A DNA stretch of 39,463 nt, from positions 1-39,463 of the IMG/VR virus record IMGVR_UViG_2875722834_000003; one strand, given 5' to 3'. The translations under genes and the position numbers were made by a program. The notes beneath the pieces were generated by a model. The model searched no databases. It was not told where the DNA came from and worked only from the letters and a program-made list of their open reading frames with translations. This DNA comes from a virus (Duplodnaviria > Heunggongvirae > Uroviricota > Caudoviricetes). Each line of letters opens with the position of its first letter. The first letter of the stretch is position 1. Below are positions 1 through 39,463 of this stretch, piece by piece.

Positions 1-1284
1 TTACTTCTTCGCCTCTGCAACCACTTTACTACCCACGCCGCGGTTATTGTATTCCCACATGCGGTTGTAGTTAGTGTCATTCAGATTGCGCTGTATTTCG
101 TCGTTATCATCTACGCTGCCGGTATTACCCGCAAACGGACGATTAGAGATCACCGCATCGGCCCACGGTTTAGCCGTGTTAAAACCTTCGTTGATGGCGC
201 TATCACGGATCACCACCTGACCGTTGGTATTGGCATCAACATCCAGCGAGCGGCCCAGTTGCGCCACACCATCACCGAAAGCATTGAAACGGCTGTTTAC
301 GGCGAGGAAACCGTAGTAAATGTTGGACAGCGTAGCCGGTGCAAACACATACGCTTCTTGCTGAGTACGTGAGTTCACCACGCGGAATTCGGTGTTATCG
401 AACACCACTGCGCCGCGACCAGAAACGATATCCACATCCCCTTCAATGTAGCTGTTGGTCACCAGCGTACGCGGCTGACGATTCGTTTCCAGACGGTTCT
501 GCACACCGCTGTTGGTGACAAAGAAGGTGTTCTGACGACCGAGAATGTTAACGTTGTTAATCTGTACCTGGTCACCATCAGTACGCAGTGCCACCGCCGG
601 ATGGTTACCTGCATCTACGCTATCGCCCAGCGTGTTTTCGATGGTCAGATTTTGCAGTTGCAGGCCATTGTTTTGTGACCAGAAGACCGCAGAGCAGAGA
701 ACACCGATACTGTCGCTGCGTTTGCTCTGGCAGCTATCGTACATATACCACGCTGGTTTACCTGGCATATATTTGCCGCGCGGGTTGACGTCGTGACGCC
801 AGTCGGCAGGGCTCATGCCACCATCAAGGGAAAGCCCAATCTTCACATCAATCGGTTTTTCACCTGTACCGTACAGAGTAATTCCACCCGGAGCGGCAGG
901 GACATATACCGTTCCCTGATACTCACCAGGCATCACGGCAATATACTGGCGCTTGTTGGTACGCTTGATAATTGCCGCATCTACCGCCGCCTGAATCGTG
1001 GTATGCGTTACACCTTGAGTGCCCGCCGGGCCGACAACAAAGTCAGGTTGCGCAGGCAGGGTAATCGGGGAAGGATTCCACGCTGCAGCACCTGGTGTCA
1101 GGGATGCAAAATAGTGTTGAGCATCGAAATTCTGCGCTTCTTTTGCCGACAGAATCGGGCGAGAAGAGGTACCAGGCGCGGTTTGATCAGAAGGACGTTG
1201 ATCGGGCGGGGTTGAGCTACAGGCGGTCAGCGTCACGCCAAAAGCCAATGCCAGCGCCAGACGGGAAACTGAAAATGTGTTCAC
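1..1284 (-). CDS. ybhC: Host outer-membrane lipoprotein YbhC (pectinesterase-family putative acyl-CoA thioesterase)
   Basis: ORF-track 427 aa with GTG start at 1282-1284 and stop at 1-3; N-terminal lipoprotein signal ending LTAC; recalled identity to E. coli YbhC, the gene next to attB-lambda. From memory, not searched. Confidence 0.8.
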   Translation of the reverse strand: MNTFSVSRLALALAFGVTLTACSSTPPDQRPSDQTAPGTSSRPILSAKEAQNFDAQHYFASLTPGAAAWNPSPITLPAQPDFVVGPAGTQGVTHTTIQAAVDAAIIKRTNKRQYIAVMPGEYQGTVYVPAAPGGITLYGTGEKPIDVKIGLSLDGGMSPADWRHDVNPRGKYMPGKPAWYMYDSCQSKRSDSIGVLCSAVFWSQNNGLQLQNLTIENTLGDSVDAGNHPAVALRTDGDQVQINNVNILGRQNTFFVTNSGVQNRLETNRQPRTLVTNSYIEGDVDIVSGRGAVVFDNTEFRVVNSRTQQEAYVFAPATLSNIYYGFLAVNSRFNAFGDGVAQLGRSLDVDANTNGQVVIRDSAINEGFNTAKPWADAVISNRPFAGNTGSVDDNDEIQRNLNDTNYNRMWEYNNRGVGSKVVAEAKK

Positions 1285-1320
1285 AGGTTGCTCCGGGCTA
1301 TGAAATAGAAAAATGAATCC

Positions 1321-1440
1321 GTTGAAGCCTGCTTTTTTATACTAAGTTGGCATTATAAAAAAGCATTGCTTATCAATTTGTTGCAACGAACAGGTCACTA
1401 TCAGTCAAAATAAAATCATTATTTGATTTCAATTTTGTCC
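1321..1440. other. attL of lambda type: host B arm, 15-bp core, phage P' arm
   Basis: Core GCTTTTTTATACTAA at 1331-1345 read directly; upstream GTTGAAGCCT matches the bacterial B arm; downstream sequence matches the lambda P' arm (IHF-like TATCAATTTGTTG about 1371-1383; arm-type repeats CAGGTCACTA, TCAGTCAAAA, TAAAATCATT at 1391-1420) and runs into int. Confidence 0.9.
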
Positions 1441-2489
1441 CACTCCCTGCCTCTGTCATCACGATACTGTGATGCCATGGTGTCCGACTTATGCCCGAGA
1501 AGATGTTGAGCAAACTTATCGCTTATCTGCTTCTCATAGAGTCTTGCAGACAAACTGCGCAACTCGTGAAAGGTAGGCGGATCCCCTTCGAAGGAAAGAC
1601 CTGATGCTTTTCGTGCGCGCATAAAATACCTTGATACTGTGCCGGATGAAAGCGGTTCGCGACGAGTAGATGCAATTATGGTTTCTCCGCCAAGAATCTC
1701 TTTGCATTTATCAAGTGTTTCCTTCATTGATATTCCGAGAGCATCAACATGCAATGCTGTTGGGATGGCAATTTTTACGCCTGTTTTGCTTTGCTCGACA
1801 TAAAGATATCCATCTACGATATCAGACCACTTCATTTCGCATAAATCACCAACTCGTTGCCCGGTAACAACAGCCAGTTCCATTGCAAGTCTGAGCCAAC
1901 ATGGTGATGATTCTGCTGCTTGATAAATTTTCAGGTATTCGTCAGCCGTAAGTCTTGATCTCCTTACCTCTGATTTTGCTGCGCGAGTGGCAGCGACAGG
2001 GTTTGTTGTTATATGGCCTTCAGCTATTGCCTCTCGGAATGCATCGCTCAGTGTTGATCTGATTAACTTGGCTGACGCCGCCTTGCCCTCGTCTATGTAT
2101 CCATTGAGCATTGCCGCAATTTCTTTTGTGGTGATGTCTTCAAGTGGAGCATCAGGCAGACCCCTCCTTATTGCTTTAATTTTGCTCATGTAATTTATGA
2201 GTGTCTTCTGCTTGATTCCTCTGCTGGCCAGGATTTTTTCGTAGCGATCAAGCCATGAATGTAACGTAACGGAATTATCACTGTTGATTCTCGCTGTCAG
2301 AGGCTTGTGTTTGTGTCCTGAAAATAACTCAATGTTGGCCTGTATAGCTTCAGTGATTGCGATTCGCCTGTCTCTGCCTAATCCAAACTCTTTACCCGTC
2401 CTTGGGTCCCTGTAGCAGTAATATCCATTGTTTCTTATATAAAGGTTAGGGGGTAAATCCCGGCGCTCATGACTTCGCCTTCTTCCCAT
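1419..2489 (-). CDS. int: Integrase, tyrosine recombinase (lambda Int)
   Basis: 356 aa, MGRRRSHERRDLPPNLYIRNNGYYCYRDPRTGKEF..., recalled as essentially identical to lambda Int; overlaps xis and abuts the P' arm as in lambda. Confidence 0.95.
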   Translation of the reverse strand: MGRRRSHERRDLPPNLYIRNNGYYCYRDPRTGKEFGLGRDRRIAITEAIQANIELFSGHKHKPLTARINSDNSVTLHSWLDRYEKILASRGIKQKTLINYMSKIKAIRRGLPDAPLEDITTKEIAAMLNGYIDEGKAASAKLIRSTLSDAFREAIAEGHITTNPVAATRAAKSEVRRSRLTADEYLKIYQAAESSPCWLRLAMELAVVTGQRVGDLCEMKWSDIVDGYLYVEQSKTGVKIAIPTALHVDALGISMKETLDKCKEILGGETIIASTRREPLSSGTVSRYFMRARKASGLSFEGDPPTFHELRSLSARLYEKQISDKFAQHLLGHKSDTMASQYRDDRGREWDKIEIK

Positions 2490-4327: not shown

Positions 4328-4989
4328 AGCGAGGCTCCTTTGCGAAGCTGGGCGGCGATATCTTCGAGAACGCCATCAGAGAATGAGCGGTCAAAATCGC
4401 CTTCCGGCGCATTAGCCATAAACTCAGTAGAGGTAATAATCATCCTGGCAATATCCGCGGCGTTCTTTGCAGTATCATCAATAAAACCAGCTTCCCAGGC
4501 AGCCAGCATTCTGTTCGCCACAAAGTAAGCTCCCTCCTTGCGTGCTTCAGTCTTCACTTCAGCCAGGAAAGCGTCGGTGGCCGGGGTTTTGTTATCTGAC
4601 TCCAGCCACTGGTTGTAGTAATAATCGAACATGCCAGTAGGATAACCACATCCGCTGTGCACGTGGTCTTTCATAGCAGAACCACACATGCAGTAGTCAT
4701 TGTCAGTATTACTAATGATGTCGATAAGTTGCTGTGTCCGTTGCTTCAACATCGCATTCTCCGCCGCCAGCGCAGAAAACTTCTCGTGCGCCAACTTAAC
4801 GGCTGCATCTGCCTGCTTAATTGACTCAATCGCTTTCTGGTGGTCTTCGTACAGAGCCGAAATCTTGGCCTCCGCTTCAGCAAATTTACGCACCAGATAT
4901 TCAGCGTTTGTTTCGTTAACCTTTAAATCACATGGGATGCATTTACCTTTCAGAAAACCATCCATCTCAATTAGTGACATTTGTTTCAT
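4324..4989 (-). CDS. Ead/Ea22-like early protein (coiled-coil N-half, Cys/His-rich C-half)
   Basis: ORF track 4324..5007; I prefer the internal ATG at 4987-4989 (MKQMSLIEM..., 221 aa) because it has a GGAG-rich leader and overlaps the stop of an upstream small ORF. Family assignment is recalled, not searched. Confidence 0.5.
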
Positions 4990-5150
4990 TTCTTCCCACT
5001 CCACCACATAGCATTCAGATATTTGTTGTCATTAACAGAACCGAAACTCTTTCTCTTAAGCAACTCCTCTCTCGATGGCATTTGCTTTACGCGTTGGCGA
5101 ATAATCATTTCTGCCGGAAGAATGCCGGGATTGTATGCAAGTCCTCTCAT
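4986..5150 (-). CDS. Hypothetical small protein (54 aa), translationally coupled
   Basis: Not in ORF track. ATG 5148-5150 overlaps the stop of the upstream gene (ATGA); its own stop overlaps the ATG at 4989; translation [54 protein letters not shown]. Confidence 0.35.
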
Positions 5151-5437
5151 GATTTACTCTCAACGAACTGGTCAACGGCCATGCTAAGTGACACACCTAA
5201 AGTCTCGATATGCTGCTGAATATCCTGTAGCGTCCGCGCTTGAGATAACAGAATTTCACGGTTGCATAACTCTTTAACCAGATGCTCAAACTTGCTGTAA
5301 TAACCTATACGGCTTAGTGTTTCTTTCCCTGCATTCTCACCTTCTTTGATAATTCCTCTTTCGCTAAGAATCAGATCGTGTTTGGTTCCGGTGATAACGT
5401 ATTTGCCGAGGTCGATGTTTAGCTTCATTGTTTTCAT
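5147..5437 (-). CDS. Hypothetical early-left protein (96 aa from [11 protein letters not shown])
   Basis: ORF track 5147..5470; start moved to ATG at 5435-5437, which has GAGGAA 6 nt upstream and avoids the 23-nt overlap with the Abc2-like gene. Confidence 0.5.
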
Positions 5438-5447
5438 TGTTAATTCC

Positions 5448-5744
5448 TCAGTCATTACTGATAGCGCCATAACGTGAGCGGTAATTACGCAGGCGCGGGT
5501 CGATATATTCAGGGAGTTTGTCTATTGTCGCTTTTCGCAACGGTCTCATTGCTGTTTCGTTTGTTCGGTCCTTCTCATCTTTTAACGCGAGTTGTATATC
5601 GCGTCGGTACATCCGTTCTGCTTTTGTTTCTGGTGGCAGATCAATAAACGTGTCGAAAATGTTTTTGATATTTTCCAGCACCTCCGCCTTGGAGCTACCG
5701 GAGCAGTTGCGCGGGTCATCCGCACCATACAGAGGCGCTGGCAT
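5448..5744 (-). CDS. abc2: Abc2-like anti-RecBCD protein (P22 type)
   Basis: 98 aa MPAPLYGADDPRNCSGSSKAEVLENIKNIFDTFIDLPPETKAERMYRRD...; position downstream of erf as in P22; identity recalled, not searched. Confidence 0.45.
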   Translation of the reverse strand: MPAPLYGADDPRNCSGSSKAEVLENIKNIFDTFIDLPPETKAERMYRRDIQLALKDEKDRTNETAMRPLRKATIDKLPEYIDPRLRNYRSRYGAISND

Positions 5745-5767
5745 AATGGGAGCCTTATTTTGCTAAT

Positions 5768-6148
5768 CTAGAAGGGAATTGAATCGTCGTATTCAGGATG
5801 ATTTTGATGATTGCTACTTTGCTGCTGGCCATTTCCTGAAGCTGCAAATCCAATCTTTGCATTCAGTAATTCAAGAGTGATTGATTGACCATTTTGCCCC
5901 TGATAAACATCAACCCTGATGTTTTCTCCGGTAATTTCCACAATGCCTCCTTCAACCAGAACGCTACGGTAGTAATCCGCTTGCGCTCCCGGCTTGGCAA
6001 ATACAACGGCGCTGTAGTTTGTCCATTCTTTCTTTTTTGTCTGGCGATCGTAATACTGAACGCCAGCACGGATGTTGAATCCGATATTTTCCCCGGCCTG
6101 AAACTCTCTTGCGGGCTTGTTTAGTCTTACAGTAATCGAATGTGCCAT
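5768..6148 (-). CDS. Phage single-strand DNA-binding protein-like
   Basis: ORF track 5768..6238; start taken at ATG 6146-6148 (MAHSITVRL..., 126 aa) with AAGGAG upstream; C-terminal tail ...YDDSIPF resembles the SSB DDDIPF tip; overlaps erf stop by 1 nt. Confidence 0.5.
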   Translation of the reverse strand: MAHSITVRLNKPAREFQAGENIGFNIRAGVQYYDRQTKKKEWTNYSAVVFAKPGAQADYYRSVLVEGGIVEITGENIRVDVYQGQNGQSITLELLNAKIGFAASGNGQQQSSNHQNHPEYDDSIPF

Positions 6149-6753
6149 TAAGCAGCAGCTCCTTCTAATTCGTCTCGTCTGATGTTGTAAACGTCCTGCG
6201 CTTTGTGCTGCTCCGGTGTGCCTTCGAGCATCTTCCACGCTTTGGCGAACGCCTGTTTAAGCTCTTCCACGGTGTTTTTCTGCATTGCTGCGTCAGTGAA
6301 TGCTTTTAGAACCTGTTCAGGTGTAGGTGATGGTTTTGATTGCTTTGCTACTGCGTTCTGCTGATGTTTATGCTCGTCTGTATCTGCATCTTTCGCATCA
6401 TCAATGCCGAACAAACCATTGAGGCAATACTTGCGTGCATAAGAGCTTGTAGCTCCCGTAACTTGTGCAGAATCCATCCCTTTCTTGCTTTCTTCCTCTC
6501 GTGCAAGAGCGGTTGCCGTATGGCTGTTTTCGCCATCGGTAATAGTTGCCGTGGCTTTCACGTAATACCGATCACCAATCAGCACAACTTCATCGCTGAT
6601 TGATAAAAACAGGCCATTCAGTAGCGGCTTAACGCCTTCAAGAATGTCTTCGCAGCTTCTGTATTTATATTTACCGAATGAGTTGTACTGATTCTTTGGC
6701 GCGTTCAGATTCTCCTGAATAGCTGCCAGTCTTGCGTAAAATTCTTTGCTCAT
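6148..6753 (-). CDS. erf: Erf, essential recombination function single-strand annealing protein (P22 type)
   Basis: ORF track 6148..6783 begins at TTG; ATG at 6751-6753 gives MSKEFYARLAAIQENLNAPKNQYNSFGKYKYRSCEDILEGVKPLL..., matching recalled P22 Erf. Confidence 0.8.
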   Translation of the reverse strand: MSKEFYARLAAIQENLNAPKNQYNSFGKYKYRSCEDILEGVKPLLNGLFLSISDEVVLIGDRYYVKATATITDGENSHTATALAREEESKKGMDSAQVTGATSSYARKYCLNGLFGIDDAKDADTDEHKHQQNAVAKQSKPSPTPEQVLKAFTDAAMQKNTVEELKQAFAKAWKMLEGTPEQHKAQDVYNIRRDELEGAAA

Positions 6754-6854
6754 ATGTTTGTTCTCAGAATGGACATTCCCCAAGGAAATAACGCTGGTTT
6801 AATACTTCGACTCGGGACAAATTAAGGCATACCCGCATTCCTTCGCGGTCGCCA

Positions 6855-7013
6855 TTATGGCGATACCAGAGAGCTTTCTGCGTGTACATGCGTCTCTGTA
6901 ACTTGCTCTCCTTCACTGTGGTTGCAAGTGACATGAATATCTCCTTCGTTACCGATTAATTCTTTCATATGACGAATGAATTCCTCGTCTGACCAGTTAT
7001 CTGTAAAACTCAT
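6855..7013 (-). CDS. Hypothetical small protein (52 aa) in the kil/arf position
   Basis: ORF track 6855..7043 starts at TTG; ATG at 7011-7013 (MSFTDNWSDEEFIRHMKELIG...) overlaps the cIII-like stop (ATGA). Confidence 0.4.
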   Translation of the reverse strand: MSFTDNWSDEEFIRHMKELIGNEGDIHVTCNHSEGEQVTETHVHAESSLVSP

Positions 7014-7180
7014 GGACGGCCTTGTTGTTTCAAAATATCCCAAAGCTTTTCGAGCAAACTTTTCATTCTTGGTTGTTTAAAGTCTGCTCCGGTTAAAATA
7101 TTTTTTCGTGAATGCTGTACCGATAAAATCGGGTTGAAAGGGCGAACCGATGCCGCCCCTGCAATAGCGAACTGTTGCAT
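7010..7180 (-). CDS. cIII: CIII-like protein (FtsH inhibitor family)
   Basis: ORF track 7010..7285; ATG at 7178-7180 with AAGGAG 7 nt upstream; 56 aa MQQFAIAGAASVRPFNPILSVQHSRKNILTGADFKQPRMKSLLEKLWDILKQQGRP, same pattern as lambda CIII (MQYAIAG...LLERI...ILNQPG). Confidence 0.6.
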   Translation of the reverse strand: MQQFAIAGAASVRPFNPILSVQHSRKNILTGADFKQPRMKSLLEKLWDILKQQGRP

Positions 7181-7374
7181 AGGATGCTCCTTCTTTTTGA
7201 TTGCATAACGAAAACGCCTCGAGTGAAGCGTTATTGGTATGCATATAAAAAGGCCCTCACACTGGAGGGCAAAGAAGATTTCCAATAATCAGAACAAGTC
7301 GGCTCCTGTTTAGTTACGAGCGACATTGCTCCGTGTATTCACTCGTTGGAATGAATACACAGTGCTTATTCATA

Positions 7375-7845
7375 CTAATAAAACACCCAATTTTCTGTTT
7401 CTTGGTTGTGTCCAAAGTTATATTCAATATCTGGTGTTGATGTATCAATATTCTTCATCCCATCAACAAGAGTTGATACAACAGCCAAATCTTGTTTGAT
7501 TCTCATCAAATGGTATTTCTTCCGGCGCAATAAACTTTCAATGGCAAGTTTCTTCGTCGGGAACGCAAAAGATCTTTCTGCATTTTTTGCTACTTTCTTA
7601 ATTGCATATCTATTTCTCCTTTGTTTCCATTCCTGTAACCACTGATTTGGTGCTGGTTTAAAATTAACAATCCAATGCGCAGGAACCAACCATGCATAAT
7701 GCTCTGTCTGATGAAAAGCTATATATTGAAGTGCGAATATTTTGATTCCATCTTCTTCAACTGTCGCTTGGAATCTCCAGAAAACAGGCATTCCATCATG
7801 TTCAGTTTCTGATTCAGGAAAAGGTACGCTCCATGATTTTGTCAT
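7375..7845 (-). CDS. Hypothetical AT-rich accessory protein (156 aa), unknown function
   Basis: ORF track; ATG 7843-7845 with GAGGTGAGAT leader; sampled lines are about 33-37 % GC against about 48 % in N; no motif recognised. Confidence 0.65.
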   Translation of the reverse strand: MTKSWSVPFPESETEHDGMPVFWRFQATVEEDGIKIFALQYIAFHQTEHYAWLVPAHWIVNFKPAPNQWLQEWKQRRNRYAIKKVAKNAERSFAFPTKKLAIESLLRRKKYHLMRIKQDLAVVSTLVDGMKNIDTSTPDIEYNFGHNQETENWVFY

Positions 7846-7925
7846 ATCTCACCTCAAATAATTCAGTGCAGTGTTTATTCTGTTGTTTATGCCAAAAGAA
7901 GGCCGACTATGCGGCATAATTATTT

Positions 7926-8114
7926 TTAACTATCATCAATACATGGCACTTTATTCCAGTCGATATCGTTTTTATTGTCGTCCCACATGTCTTTGTTTTT
8001 GTATTTCTCGCTACATCCTAGGCAAATGTTGTATGGCCTACCGATAAGGTTTAACGAAATACGTTGCATTTCATTTGATTCAAACATGTATCCACAGAAC
8101 TGACATTTATGCAT
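7926..8114 (-). CDS. Hypothetical zinc-ribbon-like small protein (62 aa), immediately downstream of N
   Basis: ORF track; ATG 8112-8114 with GGGGTGAGAT leader, 3 nt after the N stop; CxxC (CQFCG) and CxxC (CLGCS) pairs; AT-rich. Confidence 0.6.
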   Translation of the reverse strand: MHKCQFCGYMFESNEMQRISLNLIGRPYNICLGCSEKYKNKDMWDDNKNDIDWNKVPCIDDS

Positions 8115-33957: not shown

Positions 33958-34218
33958 TTAGTTGCTGTCTTTTTTATATAGCTCCTTTAGCGTGTCAAAG
34001 ACAATTTTCTTAACCATATCAGATTGTTGTTCTGCCATACGCTCTGCATCGTCAATGTAAACTGGTGCAGAGCTTTGTTTAGCCAATGATTCTTCAATCG
34101 CTGCAATTATCTCTGAGTTCAGCGACCTGTTATTCATCTTCGCGCGCTGTTTAATTTTCGCGTGGAGTTCATGCGGAAGTCTCAAGTGAAACTGCGCCTC
34201 GTCGTATTTGCTGTACAT
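33958..34218 (-). CDS. mnt: Mnt-like ribbon-helix-helix repressor
   Basis: ORF track 33958..34251; ATG 34216-34218 gives 86 aa MYSKYDEAQFHLRLPHELHAKIKQRAKMNNRSLNSEI...DDAERMAEQQSDMVKKIVFDTLKELYKK, aligning with recalled P22 Mnt (HFNFRMPMEV...NDAERLADEQSELVKKMVFDTLKDLYKK). Confidence 0.8.
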   Translation of the reverse strand: MYSKYDEAQFHLRLPHELHAKIKQRAKMNNRSLNSEIIAAIEESLAKQSSAPVYIDDAERMAEQQSDMVKKIVFDTLKELYKKDSN

Positions 34219-34314: not shown

Positions 34315-34349
34315 CATATCATTCGTCTGGAGCAATGAAATGTCAGATA

Positions 34350-34850
34350 TCACCTACTCAACAGATGGTCAGCAACCATGTTTGCTGCCTTATAAGCTAT
34401 AGCAGCTTCATCAATGGTGTTGAATCTCCCAAGGGTTATGTTTTTACCTGAGACATTTATCTGAGCTTGCCATTGATTTCTGGCTTGACAGAAAGTTACC
34501 CCCTTGATTCCAGCATTGCTATTTCGAGGTCCGACATTTAATGCATTTACGACTCTGCTGACATCCCTAAGGTTTGAGATTGCGTTATTTCTTCTGTTTC
34601 TATCAATGTGGTCAATCTCTTGTTTTGGCCATTCGCCATATACATACAGCCAGGCAAGTCTATGTGCAAAATATCTTACGCCATCAATATTAATTGCGTT
34701 ATATCCATAAGAAATTGTGCCAGCAACTTTCCCAACAGCACCTCTGGCGCTTAATTTCTTTTTCCAAGTGAAAATTCCTGTTTCTTTATTGTAATCGAGA
34801 ACCTCCATAAGGCGCTCCCGAGTTACTACCTCGTGACGTCTCTTACTCAT
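34350..34850 (-). CDS. HNH endonuclease with AP2-type DNA-binding domain (homing-endonuclease-like)
   Basis: ORF track 34350..34892 begins at TTG; ATG 34848-34850 with GGAG 7 nt upstream gives 166 aa; motifs [13 protein letters not shown]...[18 protein letters not shown] (HNH) and C-terminal [15 protein letters not shown]...[17 protein letters not shown] (AP2-like); about 37 % GC. Confidence 0.75.
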
Positions 34851-34872
34851 TATTTTCTCCGGAATGTTTATT

Positions 34873-37020
34873 ATGCCAGAACAATTATACAACGTTGTTG
34901 TTTCACAACCAAGTCAGTTATTTACTTTAGCTCGCTCGTTTAAAGCAAATGCCAATGGCAAAATTTATATCGGTAAAATTGACACTGACCCTGTAAATCC
35001 TGAAAACCAGATTCAGGTTTATGTGGAGAACGAAGACGGCTCTCACGTTCCTGTATCCCAGCCAATCATCATTAACGCCGCTGGTTATCCGGTATATAAC
35101 GGACAGATTGCCAAATTCGTTACCGTGCAAGGCCATTCTATGGCTGTTTATGATGCATATGGTGCTCAACAGTTCTATTTTCCTAATGTGCTTAAGTATG
35201 ACCCTGACCAGTTCAGGGCAATTATAGAGTCACCAGAAGGTGCTGGACACGTAGGATATCAGTATCGCAGGAATACAGGTGCGACCATGAGAATGGTAAG
35301 CGATGTGCTGGATGAGCGTGTCAGCCTTTGGGATTTTCACTGCGATTCATCAGGTAACGTAATTCAGCCCGGGCCAACTGTGGATAGTCGGCAGTACATT
35401 CAAAAGGCTATTGACGCGATATACGAAGCTGGCGGTGGAACACTAATTATCCCAACGGGAACATGGTATCTAAACTCGTATGGTGTTCCAGATAAAATTT
35501 CTAACTATGGTGGAGTAATCCACTGGCGCTCTCGTGTCAATATTCACTTTGAAGCCGGTTCTACGCTAAAGCTGACAAACTACTTCAATGAACGCGGCTA
35601 TTGCGTTATCTGTGGTTTTGACGGTAATGACCCCGCAACGTCTGGCGATTTGCGCGATGCAATGATTACGGGTAATGGAACCATTCACTGCGGGGACAAT
35701 ATACAGGCGGTGGGAGGCTCGCTAGCATATGCGATAGGCACTGGGAGATCATACAACGTAAGCGTAAGGGATATACACATTACTGGTGGGGACCTGACTT
35801 GGGCCGTGACACTTGGATGGAATGGTTATGGCAATAATACTGTTGTAGATGGGGTCACTGTTACTGAGGTTAAGAAGACTGAGGTTGCCCGTAACGTTGA
35901 CCAGTCCCTCTTCTATGTGGGGTGTCAGTTCTCTGGTATACAGAACTGCTATATGAAACCTTCTGAATCAGGGTTGGCCGCAAAAATATCAGCAGCAGTG
36001 GAACTTCACCAGTCTGGCACTTTTTGCCTGAACAACCAGATGTATGGATTCATGCGTGGTGTTTATGTTGTTTTGCACGGACGTGAAACGGCAGGCAGCG
36101 GTCTATTCATGAACAATATTCGTGTATCTGGTAACACTGCGTACATTAATGGTCAGTTTGTGACTGTAGGTGCGGATAGTATAGATTTTGATACTCATGT
36201 TTCTGATGTAATTATATCCGATAACATTTGTACCATTATGAACCCTGTAGACTCTGCTCCATTGGTTAGATGCTTTATATCATCTGACTTGTTTGTAGAG
36301 GCCCCGCCGGATAATGAAACTGCGCGCGTACTGGTTGATGGGAATATCTTCTTAGCGCCAACAACTACCCCAGACAGTTTATTTTTCTTTTACAGAGTAA
36401 GCAGCCGTGGGTTTTACTTTAGCAACAACATGTGTGATTGCCGTCGTATAATTTCTGGGGATGGGGCCGGCACTGGTATTGTAGAACTACGCGATATAAT
36501 CTGGGACGCATCCAATAAGATTGGGCCTACTTGGATAGGTCAACGTGGCGGTAATGCGAACATGTTTGAGTTTTACGTCGCCAATATTTTACGCTGTAAA
36601 TTTGAAATATCTATGCCATATGTGGACACTAGCATGGCTAGTATTTTCTACGCGCCAGATACGGCCAATATAACGTTTACAGTAGTCAAAGTTGATCCAG
36701 AAAATATACCATCTTCTGTAACTGCAGTTAGCATCTCAGAGGCTAACAAAAACCGGGGAACAAATTACTTTGAGTTCCCGGAAACTATATCCTTCTCATC
36801 TTTCAACACCGCGGGAGCAGTATTTTGCTACAGCACATCAACTAACTATGCCTGGTGTGGAAGTGCAACGGCATTGTCAAAGTCAGGAGTTTCTGGGCTG
36901 GTAACTCCTGGTGAATATGGTGTCAAAGATAACGGTCAGCTTGGTGGGGTAGGATATAATGATACAGGCGCAGCCAGGAACTGGAGCCAGCGTGTTTTAT
37001 TAAAAAGCGCAATAGAATAA
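34873..37020 (+). CDS. Tailspike protein (P22-type head-binding domain plus beta-helix receptor-binding/depolymerase domain)
   Basis: ORF track 34864..37020; ATG 34873 chosen by alignment to the P22 tailspike N-terminus (NVVVS..., [33 protein letters not shown]); the remaining about 600 aa differ from P22. Confidence 0.85.
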
Positions 37021-37027
37021 ATGAAAT

Positions 37028-37046
37028 AGCCCGCTTACTGCGGGCT
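37028..37046. terminator. Bidirectional terminator between convergent tailspike and gtrC
   Basis: AGCCCGC-ttact-GCGGGCT perfect 7-bp stem with U-rich flanks on both strands. Confidence 0.6.
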
Positions 37047-37055
37047 ACTTTACCA

Positions 37056-38543
37056 TTATTTTTTGTATACCAGTATTGTCATATCTCCCTTATTTAAAAC
37101 TTTTTCAGGCTTCCCATTTTTAGATGAAATGGCGTTGATACACGACTGTATGTCTCCGCACTTTTCATGCCCATCAATAGCGATAAAGTATTTTCCATTT
37201 GATGGCATTGCTTCTTTACTGTACCAACTTCTCATGGTTTGATATCGAGGTGAGTTAAAATCAATAGACCCATTTTCAGAAATATCTACAGGTGCGATAA
37301 CTACCTCCCCATTGGAAGCCCAGAATGTAGTTAGGCTTTTATTCCAGTAGTCACCATAACCATAACTCAAATTATTATCTAGTAAAAACGCAGAATAATC
37401 CTTTATCTCCCGTTCAGAATCTTCGTAAGTTTTATTTCCAAAGTTAAAGGTTATAGCGCTCGACAGTACAAATAAAATGCAAATGGCATATGCTAGCCAT
37501 TTTGTCATTCTGCTATGAGCAACTGAATATACTATGAACACAAAAGGTGCAATATTCACAAAAAAGCGAGGTATAGGCTGGCTTGGGTCTGGATTGCTTA
37601 CTGTATAAGCTGAGATAATTCCAGCGGCGGAAAGTAGGGATAGCATAAAAAAATAACTAGAACTATCTTTCCTCAGAATCCCTGTTATGCATACATAACA
37701 AAATAACCCCCCCACAAGAATAAATGAGGCTATATATAGGGAGTGCTGCCTGAGGAAGAAAATGTTAAACATTTCACCAACCGTGAGAATCAGTTGATGT
37801 GCGTTCCCCTGCATTGTAACAAAATCAACAATATTAAAAGGTTGAGAGTCGATTCCCATTAATTTTGGTATTGTATGATTCAGAGCAATACCATAAAAAA
37901 TAGCAAGGAGAATGAAATTTACTAATTTTGTTTCTTTTCTGATGACAAAAATGAGTTCAGTAATCAGAATTGGAAGGAGATAAGTAGGCGCAGCCCACAT
38001 ATCTGAGGAACAAACTAATAACCCAAAAATGCCAACTATGGCATATGATAAAAGCCCTTGATCTCTATGTGCTTTCATTGCCATAAGGCATGTTAGCATT
38101 CCAAAAGCAACAGTAGAGTAGTGAGCAAATGGATGCTGAACAAATCCATCTGTCCAATATATGTGCGGCAAAGCAGCAAGAGGCACTGCGCAAACTAGTA
38201 ATGAACTTCGCTTGTTTAATTTCTTTGATATTGTAGATGCGATAATTATGACGCTGAATGCAAAAAAAGCAGATCCAAATATCAGCATTGGAGCGCCATA
38301 ACTTCCTAATATCAAATAAAACAGAAAGTATACAGGGTACAATGTAAAGTACCAGTTATCCGGTGTCGGGTTCCAATCAGTAAGAGACTTGAAACCGTGT
38401 TCCTTAAACTCAAGCCATACAACAGGACCATTTACTCCATCAGCATCTATTCTGAAGTATATATAAGAAAGATAAGAGATAGATATTGCGCATAAGAGCA
38501 ATATTACAATCTCTATTGATTTTTTATTTATTAGGTGTTTCAT
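37056..38543 (-). CDS. gtrC: GtrC-like serotype-specific O-antigen glucosyltransferase (polytopic membrane protein)
   Basis: 495 aa, multiple hydrophobic segments plus a C-terminal soluble domain; directly downstream of gtrB with ATGA overlap; about 27-33 % GC in sampled lines. Confidence 0.6.
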
Positions 38544-39463
38544 TTTTTATCCTTGTTACTTAAAATATATCTAGGCCTGTTCTTGGATTCGGTGTAAATC
38601 CTCCCGATGTACTCACCAAGCACCCCAATGCCAATAAGTTGTACGCCACCAAGAAACAGAATAGAAACCAGCAATGAGGGGTAGCCTCGCACCGGATTGC
38701 CAAAGGCGATAGTGTCTATAATCATCCATGCACCATAAATGAACGACAGGCCTGCTACCAACAATCCAATATAAGTCCACATGCGCAGAGGGAAGGTAGA
38801 GAAACTGGTTATCCCCTCAAGGGCAAGGTTCCATAACTTCCAGCCATTGAATTTTGAATCACCGGCAATCCTTTCAGCCCTGGTGTATTCAACGATATCA
38901 GTGTTCCCGCCAACCCAGCTAAGAATGCCTTTCATAAAGAGGTTGCGCTCAGGAAGAAGCTTGATGTTTTCCACCACCGCTCGGGACATCAGGCGGAAAT
39001 CACCTACATTCTCCTCAATTTTAGGGTTGCTGATTTTGTTGTGCAGCTTGTAGAACCACTCAGCGGTCTTCCGCTTAAGTCTTCCATCAGTTGATCTGTC
39101 TGTTCGTTTCGCCAGTACCATTTCAGCGCCAGCCTGCCACTTATCGATCAGATGAGGAATGACGTTAATAGGATCCTGCAGGTCTACATCGATAGGGATT
39201 ACGGCTTCGCCTGTCGCATGGTCTAGCCCTGCAAATAAAGCAGGCTCCTTGCCGAAGTTGCGGGTGAATGACAACGCAACAACTAGAGGGTCTGCAATTG
39301 CCAGAGATCTGATTATTGACTCTGTAGCATCCTTGCTGCCGTCGTTGATGAAGACTATTTCAACCTCATATTGCTGAAGATCTTCAAACTCGCGCACTGT
39401 TTTATAGAAAATTGGAATCGCGTCTTCTTCATTGAAGACAGGAACGACCAGAGATATCTTCAT
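38540..39463 (-). CDS. gtrB: GtrB bactoprenol glucosyltransferase (GT2 family)
   Basis: 307 aa [26 protein letters not shown]...; GT2 motifs (INDGSKD, DVDLQDP) and two C-terminal TM helices; start codon is the last three bases of the window. Confidence 0.85.

Follow-up and report, generated by a model that had tools for sequence, protein, structure and literature searches.

The gene found at 34873..37020 raises the question of what is recognised by a tailspike which starts as that of phage P22 and continues as something else, and of where this second part comes from. The gene lies in a window of 39,463 nucleotides (the whole stretch of DNA analysed), within a P22-like prophage integrated in an E. 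coli chromosome at a site between ybhC and ybhB-bioA. The window opens with the host gene ybhC, followed by integrase-side genes and by replication, lysis, terminase, portal and coat genes. Past the coat gene are found gp4, gp10, the gp26 region, gp7, gp20, gp16 and an Mnt-like repressor, then an HNH endonuclease gene, the tailspike gene and, convergent to it, gtrC and gtrB. The genes gtrA, ybhB and bioA fall just past the window end. Pfam matches to P22 coat, Tail-4, gp10, gp7, gp20 and gp16 were obtained upstream of the tailspike, and the virion genes share 94-96% nucleotide identity with Lederbergvirus phages. The tailspike ends a P22-type virion gene set that is complete up to this gene, and is located, as in Lederbergvirus, after the ejection-protein genes and the immunity I region, beside conversion genes and the attachment site. 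The two genes at the left of the region of interest are the following.

34350..34850, minus strand: HNH endonuclease gene, 166 aa (Pfam HNH_3, E 2e-16, and a weak AP2 match)
34873..37020, plus strand: tailspike gene, 715 aa plus stop (open reading frame list; 715-aa homologues at 97-99% identity)

The HNH gene is divergent from the tailspike gene, at a distance of 22 bp, and both the gene and its position are as in phage Kapi1. The open reading frame of the tailspike runs without interruption over 34864..37020 on the plus strand, and the ATG at 34873 yields a protein of 715 aa. Initiation at the in-frame ATG at 34864 was considered and rejected: the sole upstream GGA directly abuts that ATG, the homologues are 715 aa long, and the N-terminus read from 34873 matches P22 gp9 residue for residue. 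The six closest database proteins are all from E. coli, are 715 aa long and 97-99% identical, and are all labelled 'hypothetical protein'; for the identical protein there is one recorded source, an E. coli chromosome of 4.83 Mb (CP025739.1). No tailspike model was returned by the NCBIfam search, whose one beta-helix match, to an alpha-D-galacturonidase, scored 26.9 bits, far below the threshold of 800. Promoters and terminators were also scanned for, and counts were not above shuffled expectation, the sole notable item being a hairpin at 37024-37050.

The N-terminal part of the protein is a P22-type anchor.

34873..35211, plus strand: head-binding (particle-attachment) domain, aa 1-113 (Pfam PF09008, identity to P22 gp9)

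The Pfam model Head_binding (PF09008) fits residues 1-113 over its whole length of 113 positions (E 1.2e-64, score 216 bits, threshold 24), as expected of the Lederbergvirus anchor, a PF09008 N-terminal domain of about 110-115 aa. BLASTP comparison to P22 gp9 found 81 identities in 114 positions (71%, E 3e-48) over residues 1-114. Past residue 114, no BLASTP alignment to P22 gp9 with E <1 was obtained, the next best having E 1.2, and identity measured in 25-residue bins falls from 72-84% before the junction to 8-36% after it. Homology to the P22 endorhamnosidase receptor domain was thus not found past residue about 115. The earlier note had assigned roughly the first 110 residues to the P22 head-binding domain. 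Because PF09008 is matched in full, identity to P22 gp9 is 71% and collapses after residue 114, the assignment holds, the motifs and coordinates quoted for it are correct, and the similarity is far above chance. The anchor is also shared with the Sf6 gp14 spike, which is 92-96% identical over aa 26-100.

The border between anchor and receptor-binding module was placed at residues 113-118 by several comparisons. A DNA block 97% identical to phage Kapi1 (MT813197) spans 34326-35211. It comprises, in one piece, the HNH gene, the 22-bp spacer and the initial 339 nt of the tailspike gene, so that its end coincides with that of codon 113; from residue 114 on, an unrelated receptor domain is found in the Kapi1 spike (791 aa). 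Homologues of the receptor domain mounted on other N-terminal anchors start to align at residues 110-118. The same receptor domain is carried by at least four unrelated anchors, which are either Pfam Tail_spike_N, or the T7 tail-fibre N-terminus, or unassigned. The phages hosting them differ widely. Among them, L022 has a T7-like genome, L017 a SU10-type portal and L021 a DNA polymerase A; L014 and L015 are prophages, the former siphovirus-like, the latter podovirus-like and equipped with ejection genes of the T7_gp14 type. The domain-swap junction that had been predicted near residue 110-120 is borne out by the arrest of P22 similarity at 114, of the Kapi1 block at 113, and by the start of the other-anchor homologues at 110-118.

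What follows the anchor can be subdivided as shown below.

35212..35397, plus strand: neck/linker, aa 114-175, first part of the receptor-binding module (identity to HK620)
35398..36282, plus strand: predicted catalytic part of the right-handed beta-helix, aa 176-470 (identities to HK620 and isolate 602, pLDDT mostly >90, TM-score)
35899..35901, plus strand: Asp343 codon, equivalent to the catalytic Asp339 of HK620 (alignment to 2vji)
36001..36003, plus strand: Glu377 codon, equivalent to the catalytic Glu372 of HK620 (alignment to 2vji; VELHQ motif conserved)
36283..37017, plus strand: distal beta-helix and C-terminal domains, aa 471-715 (Phage_spike_2, HK620_9_C)

When PDB chains were searched with phmmer, 24 HK620 tailspike sequences came on top, residues 110-711 being collinear to residues 1-597 of the chain (2vji) with E 1.6e-146; in the same search P22 and Sf6 align to the N-terminal part only. 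Pfam domains were recognised at aa 635-711 (HK620_9_C, E 6e-18) and 511-578 (Phage_spike_2). An AlphaFold2 monomer model was built from a 41-sequence family alignment. Mean pLDDT is 84.7, and exceeds 90 in most blocks from residue 160, where repeated short strands give the pattern of a beta-helix; head-binding domain and neck are poorly modelled in the monomer, pLDDT being low in the neck. Foldseek comparison of the model to the PDB ranked 26 HK620 entries first (E about 5e-51, TM 0.92-0.94 by target, 42% identity). Far behind come an Acinetobacter depolymerase, Sf6 and P22, TM-scores for the last two ranging from 0.24 to 0.57 (0.24-0.31 for P22). On alignment and model, the receptor-binding part is a member of the HK620 tailspike family, predicted to fold as a right-handed parallel beta-helix. 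The earlier note had described the remaining 600 residues or so as a beta-helix unrelated to the P22 endorhamnosidase, possibly HK620-like; both the description, as far as sequence is concerned, and the guess were right, as seen in the match to HK620 chains, the HK620_9_C domain and the wide distance between HK620 and P22/Sf6 in TM-score.

These data bear on the alternative that the protein is a diverged, full-length endorhamnosidase of the P22 or Sf6 type, in which no domain swap has occurred. The folds are distantly related, so that Foldseek still matches P22 and Sf6 at E 1e-9 to 1e-15, and weak similarity to Sf6 extends as far as residue 194. However, at residue 114 the 71% identity to P22 gives way to background, the TM-scores separate P22 and Sf6 from HK620, and the receptor domain is found on at least four unrelated anchors. 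Homology to P22 or Sf6 over the full length is refuted by the identity drop and the TM-scores, and a spike diverged without domain exchange has practically no chance of being the correct reading. P22 gp9 and Sf6 gp14 share with the tailspike the head-binding domain, the genome position and the general plan of a beta-helix spike, but no sequence resemblance can be recognised in their receptor domains, whose enzymatic specificity is a different one.

D339 and E372 are the catalytic residues of the HK620 tailspike (PMC8217332; also PDB entry titles). Numbering is shifted to D343 and E377 in the protein analysed here because crystal numbering drops the initiator Met, and because of small indels in the query. 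Asp and Glu are found at the two positions in 40 of the 41 aligned family members, i.e. in all 40 natural sequences, the lone exception at both positions being the engineered D339A/E372Q PDB construct. Neighbouring N341, L378, H379, R395 and E405 are invariant in the family alignment. Collinearity of the receptor part, beta-helix and C-terminal domains in the predicted model, and the Asp/Glu pair, all features of the HK620 family, were thus all found, and we infer that the spike is an active enzyme. It could be objected that the gene is a decaying prophage remnant, or encodes a spike which binds without enzymatic function, as it sits in a prophage, and a related tailspike is interrupted by an IS3 element in strain 873.10. 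Yet the reading frame is full length and collinear end to end with its homologues, the catalytic residues and surrounding motifs are intact, and no P22-type virion gene is missing up to the tailspike. Decay or loss of activity is therefore regarded as very improbable.

The closest characterised relative of the protein is HK620 gp9 (PDB 2vji), the endo-N-acetylglucosaminidase for O18A/O18A1. The two have the same domain order and are collinear over the whole length, at 52% overall identity. Similarity, however, is unevenly distributed. In the neck (aa 114-175), 95-100% of residues are shared with HK620 (95%) and with each of the other E. coli tailspikes of the family that were examined. The beta-helix (aa 176-470) is only about 40-42% identical to HK620, a value which falls to 29% over aa 471-620; differences are also seen in the first 6 residues and in the sequence upstream. 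At the nucleotide level, identity to HK620 is 92-100% up to about 35330, and falls from >90% to about 50% near 35330-35390. A much better match for the beta-helix, 91-99% identical, is provided by the uncharacterised prophage tailspike of the O18 E. coli isolate 602 (WP_230133868.1, NZ_OW968111.1), which lies in the same P22-like context. Here DNA identity is 100% over 35093-35750, >90% to about 36110, and then 60-70%; protein identity is 95% over aa 176-470, 71% over 471-620 and 52% over 621-715. High identity to isolate 602 thus ends near 36110-36290, and in the C-terminal third is only 52-71%. The isolate 602 prophage also differs in being located at argW with intS, and not at ybhC/ybhB, and in having no downstream gtr genes. 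The distal part (aa 471-715) is in turn 80-90% identical to homologues from Enterobacter and metagenomes (P0010-P0016). In another set of homologues (P0001-P0006), the receptor sub-regions are 94-100% identical (nearly all 98-100%), and the head-binding domain only 90-92%; one and the same receptor module thus occurs with different anchor alleles. Altogether, these alignments break the gene into at least four pieces, each with a closest relative of its own, and in addition to the anchor junction at least two further junctions lie within the receptor-binding part.

The receptor itself has been sought in the hosts of the family. HK620 tailspike cleaves O18A1 and O18A LPS, and not O18B or O18B1 (PMC6024685), and the Kuttervirus EP75 TSP1, 45% identical to HK620, cleaves O18A only (PMC8217332). 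Of 5426 complete E. coli genomes surveyed, 1110 encode a P22-type head-binding domain, and in nine of these the match continues through the HK620-type neck (H45-H53). The O18 wzx/wzy cluster is present in all nine genomes hosting HK620-family tailspikes, which may not be independent lineages, being possibly clonally related, and in 69 of the 5426 overall. The nine genomes hold at least two mutually very diverged receptor subtypes, typified by E9/LR-31/20AR0354 and by isolate 602, respectively. One of the subtypes found is only 24-28% identical to HK620 in the C-terminal third, and its host is still O18. Isolate 602 is the sole complete genome featuring the beta-helix subtype of the window, and is an O18 host. 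Because all nine hosts are O18, isolate 602 included, the substrate of the tailspike is plausibly, with moderate confidence, an O18-type O-antigen.

The O18 subtype recognised may differ from that of HK620, given a beta-helix identity of only about 40% and a different pocket loop. Among the HK620 contacts, the comparison covered the two catalytic residues and loop 470-472, which is designated in PDB entry titles. The loop lining the pocket for the glucose branch (D470-N471-S472 in HK620), which is the target of HK620 deletion mutants deposited in the PDB, is not conserved; it reads GPDNSGASNV in HK620, is replaced here by a different stretch ([10 protein letters not shown]), and in a six-sequence alignment is 3 residues shorter. 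The glucose branch, or O18B linkages, may therefore be tolerated to a different extent. The loop bears on the specificity of the subtype and not on membership of the family. The gene clusters of O18ab and O18ac, compared for isolate 602, differ by 0.2-0.5% or less.

The competing view is that fold and architecture are the same but the receptor is not O18, the beta-helix having switched to another O-antigen, possibly one shared by some E. coli and Enterobacter roggenkampii. It draws on the modest identity of the beta-helix to HK620 (40-42%), on the loop equivalent to D470-S472, different in both sequence and length, and on the finding that gtrC and the tailspike 3' end have no near match in the 5426 complete E. 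coli genomes. Enterobacter prophages and metagenomic lytic phages moreover encode receptor domains 84-86% identical, and the glycan recognised need not therefore be restricted to E. coli O18. On the other hand, the only complete genome with the same beta-helix subtype is O18, as are the hosts of all nine family tailspikes, the subtype at 24-28% identity among them, and EP75 TSP1 still targets O18A in spite of its 45% identity to HK620. A non-O18 receptor is, on balance, unlikely, though the possibility deserves to be kept in mind, and an O18-type substrate is preferred. The claim of another O-antigen specificity, made in the earlier note, may be too strong, since the family is tied to O18, the very target of HK620, and the difference may be at the subtype level.

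EP75 TSP1 (gp167) is informative in another respect. Over aa 170-715, the tailspike analysed here shares about 33% identity with it. Its activity has been shown experimentally, and its HK620-family receptor domain, endowed with the same catalytic pair, is mounted on an anchor of the Ackermannviridae TSP1 type and not of the P22 type (PMC8217332). The receptor module therefore moves between phage types. In the window, collinearity with other prophages extends beyond the receptor module.

37024..37050, strand not assigned: GC-rich hairpin, likely a terminator, separating the tailspike gene from the convergent gtrC (11-bp stem, 6 GC pairs, minus-strand T-run)
37056..38543, minus strand: GtrC-type candidate serotype-specific O-antigen glucosyltransferase, 495 aa (GtrI similarity; directly downstream of gtrB and gtrA)
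38540..39463, minus strand: gtrB, putative bactoprenol glucosyltransferase, 307 aa (Pfam Glycos_transf_2, in L006)

The gene next to gtrB was identified as gtrA in L006 (Pfam GtrA_DPMS_TM). For GtrC of the window, no Pfam or NCBIfam match was obtained; an alignment covering 96% of the protein gives 34% identity with GtrI of Shigella phage SfI. From about 35290-35307 through gtrA, the DNA is collinear with two unrelated prophages of Enterobacter roggenkampii, L014 and L015. The shared block, which includes the tailspike 3' end, the hairpin, gtrC, gtrB and gtrA, is 88% identical to L014 over 3272 nt, up to the end of the L014 contig, and 80.6% identical to L015 over 4550 nt. Among the encoded proteins, GtrC is 94% and 80% identical to the Enterobacter counterparts, GtrB 98.7% (L015) and GtrA 78%. 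On this collinearity, the 3' two-thirds of the tailspike gene is part of a larger DNA block with gtrC-gtrB-gtrA. The same tailspike-gtr arrangement is found, at the same chromosomal site, in E. coli prophages encoding P0006. Gtr genes are lacking in the lytic phages which have the same receptor domain, and in the relatives with a C-terminal third of a different type (isolate 602, P0007). The more distant receptor subtype of P0023 (67% identical) is paired with a different GtrC, of the Glucos_trans_II type and 486 aa long. In HK620, the downstream conversion gene encodes a Wzy-like 'O-antigen modification protein' instead of GtrCBA.

The tailspike is thus very probably that of a P22-like temperate phage, made of exchangeable modules and endowed with a receptor enzyme of the HK620 family likely directed to O18. 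Residues 1-113 would dock the spike on the tail. The neck, the parallel beta-helix and the C-terminal domains, from about residue 114, would constitute an enzyme that both binds and destroys the receptor. O-antigen chains of the lipopolysaccharide would be bound along the helix and, by homology, cut by the Asp/Glu pair D343/E377. The activity of HK620, an endo-N-acetylglucosaminidase, would let the virion work down to the outer membrane. In the lysogen, the products of gtrC-gtrB-gtrA would glucosylate the same O-antigen, and superinfection would, as proposed here, therefore be blocked.

The architecture of the tailspike is ordinary and well understood. P22-like phages are known to carry a conserved head-binding domain of about 115 residues on unrelated receptor domains (PMC2629481, 2008), and cross-genus exchange of E. 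coli O-antigen-specific receptor domains has been catalogued, HK620 serving as the O18 reference (PMC10408124). As this modular design has already been described, the architecture adds nothing conceptually. What is new is limited, and consists of a so far uncharacterised subtype, in an enzyme family whose structure is well studied, and of its physical link to a specific gtrC across phage backbones. The subtype is absent from sequenced phage isolates, the best phage match being HK620 (38% over aa 170-715), and a non-exhaustive literature search found no description of the linkage.

It is tempting to speculate, although the idea is a tentative one, that the unit of exchange is a 'recognise, then mask' cassette of about 4.5 kb, formed by the receptor domain, the terminator hairpin and the cognate gtrC-gtrB-gtrA genes, which has been transferred as a whole among temperate backbones, the P22-like one and two others, and between Escherichia and Enterobacter, and that the receptor subtype recognises an O18 variant (for example O18B/B1, or a glucosylated form) which neither HK620 nor EP75 TSP1 can cleave. 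The subtype could extend O18 subtype typing or the set of depolymerase tools, the practical value being modest. The linkage to a particular GtrC couples recognition of the receptor to its modification, in a way that can be put to the test. If both the cassette and the O18-variant specificity were true, the family would offer a natural series in which one fold has been retuned across the subtypes of a single serogroup.

The prophage is flanked by the host genes ybhC on one side (window 1-2489) and ybhB-bioA on the other (positions 15310-22148 of L006, the E. coli CP025739.1 locus that carries the exact tailspike and extends past the window end); the first ORF of the window is ybhC itself (NCBIfam PRK10531). 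The ybhC/ybhB-bioA interval is the classical lambda attachment region. A related prophage occupies the same site in strain E9; those of isolate 602 and 20AR0354 are found at argW, with intS.

Two genes on the minus strand precede the tailspike gene:

33958-34218, minus strand: Mnt-type repressor gene (Arc and Repressor_Mnt Pfam domains)
34350-34850, minus strand: HNH endonuclease gene (HNH_3 domain and a weak AP2 domain)

Neither arc nor ant was found alongside the Mnt-type repressor gene, and the position held by the HNH gene is occupied in P22 by ant. HNH and tailspike genes are divergent, arranged head to head around a 22-bp spacer (34851-34872). The HNH gene and the head-binding domain make up a single block, 97% identical to phage Kapi1, which ends exactly at residue 113 of the tailspike. 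That a homing-type nuclease gene adjoins a recombination hotspot may be no coincidence.

HK620-family tailspikes were found in nine complete E. coli genomes, all nine of which host an O18 O-antigen cluster; of the 5426 complete E. coli genomes, just 69 possess that cluster. All nine share it even though the beta-helices of their tailspikes represent two or more very divergent subtypes. In E. coli O18ac:H14 strain 873.10 (NZ_CP061754.1, positions 4453-7934 of locus L011) the HK620-family tailspike gene is cut off after the head-binding domain and neck, and is immediately followed 3' by an IS3-family transposase and then by an ORF separately annotated as 'hypothetical protein'. In the 798-aa E. 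coli database protein P0009, DnaB_C/KaiC-type ATPase Pfam domains are fused to the receptor domain, identity to the window tailspike being 99% from residue 127 onward; the fusion is probably an artefact of assembly or gene calling.

Downstream of the tailspike gene are located:

37024-37050: GC-rich 11-bp hairpin, separating the stop codons of the convergent tailspike and gtrC genes
37056-38543, minus strand: gene for a 495-aa membrane protein, at the GtrC position

The hairpin, a likely terminator, takes up most of the 35-bp tailspike-gtrC intergenic gap. GC content drops to 34-39% over the GtrC-position gene. Its product has no match in Pfam or NCBIfam and no near match among the 5426 complete E. 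coli genomes, and is 34% identical to GtrI of Shigella phage SfI.

Two Enterobacter roggenkampii prophages (L014 and L015), whose virion gene sets differ, match the receptor domain, the hairpin and gtrC-gtrB-gtrA collinearly at 80-88% nucleotide identity. The shared block spans window positions ~35290-39463 and continues to gtrA (L006 14591-14953), the hairpin lying within a stretch that aligns without break. This collinearity suggests that O-antigen glucosylation genes and the tailspike receptor domain travel jointly.
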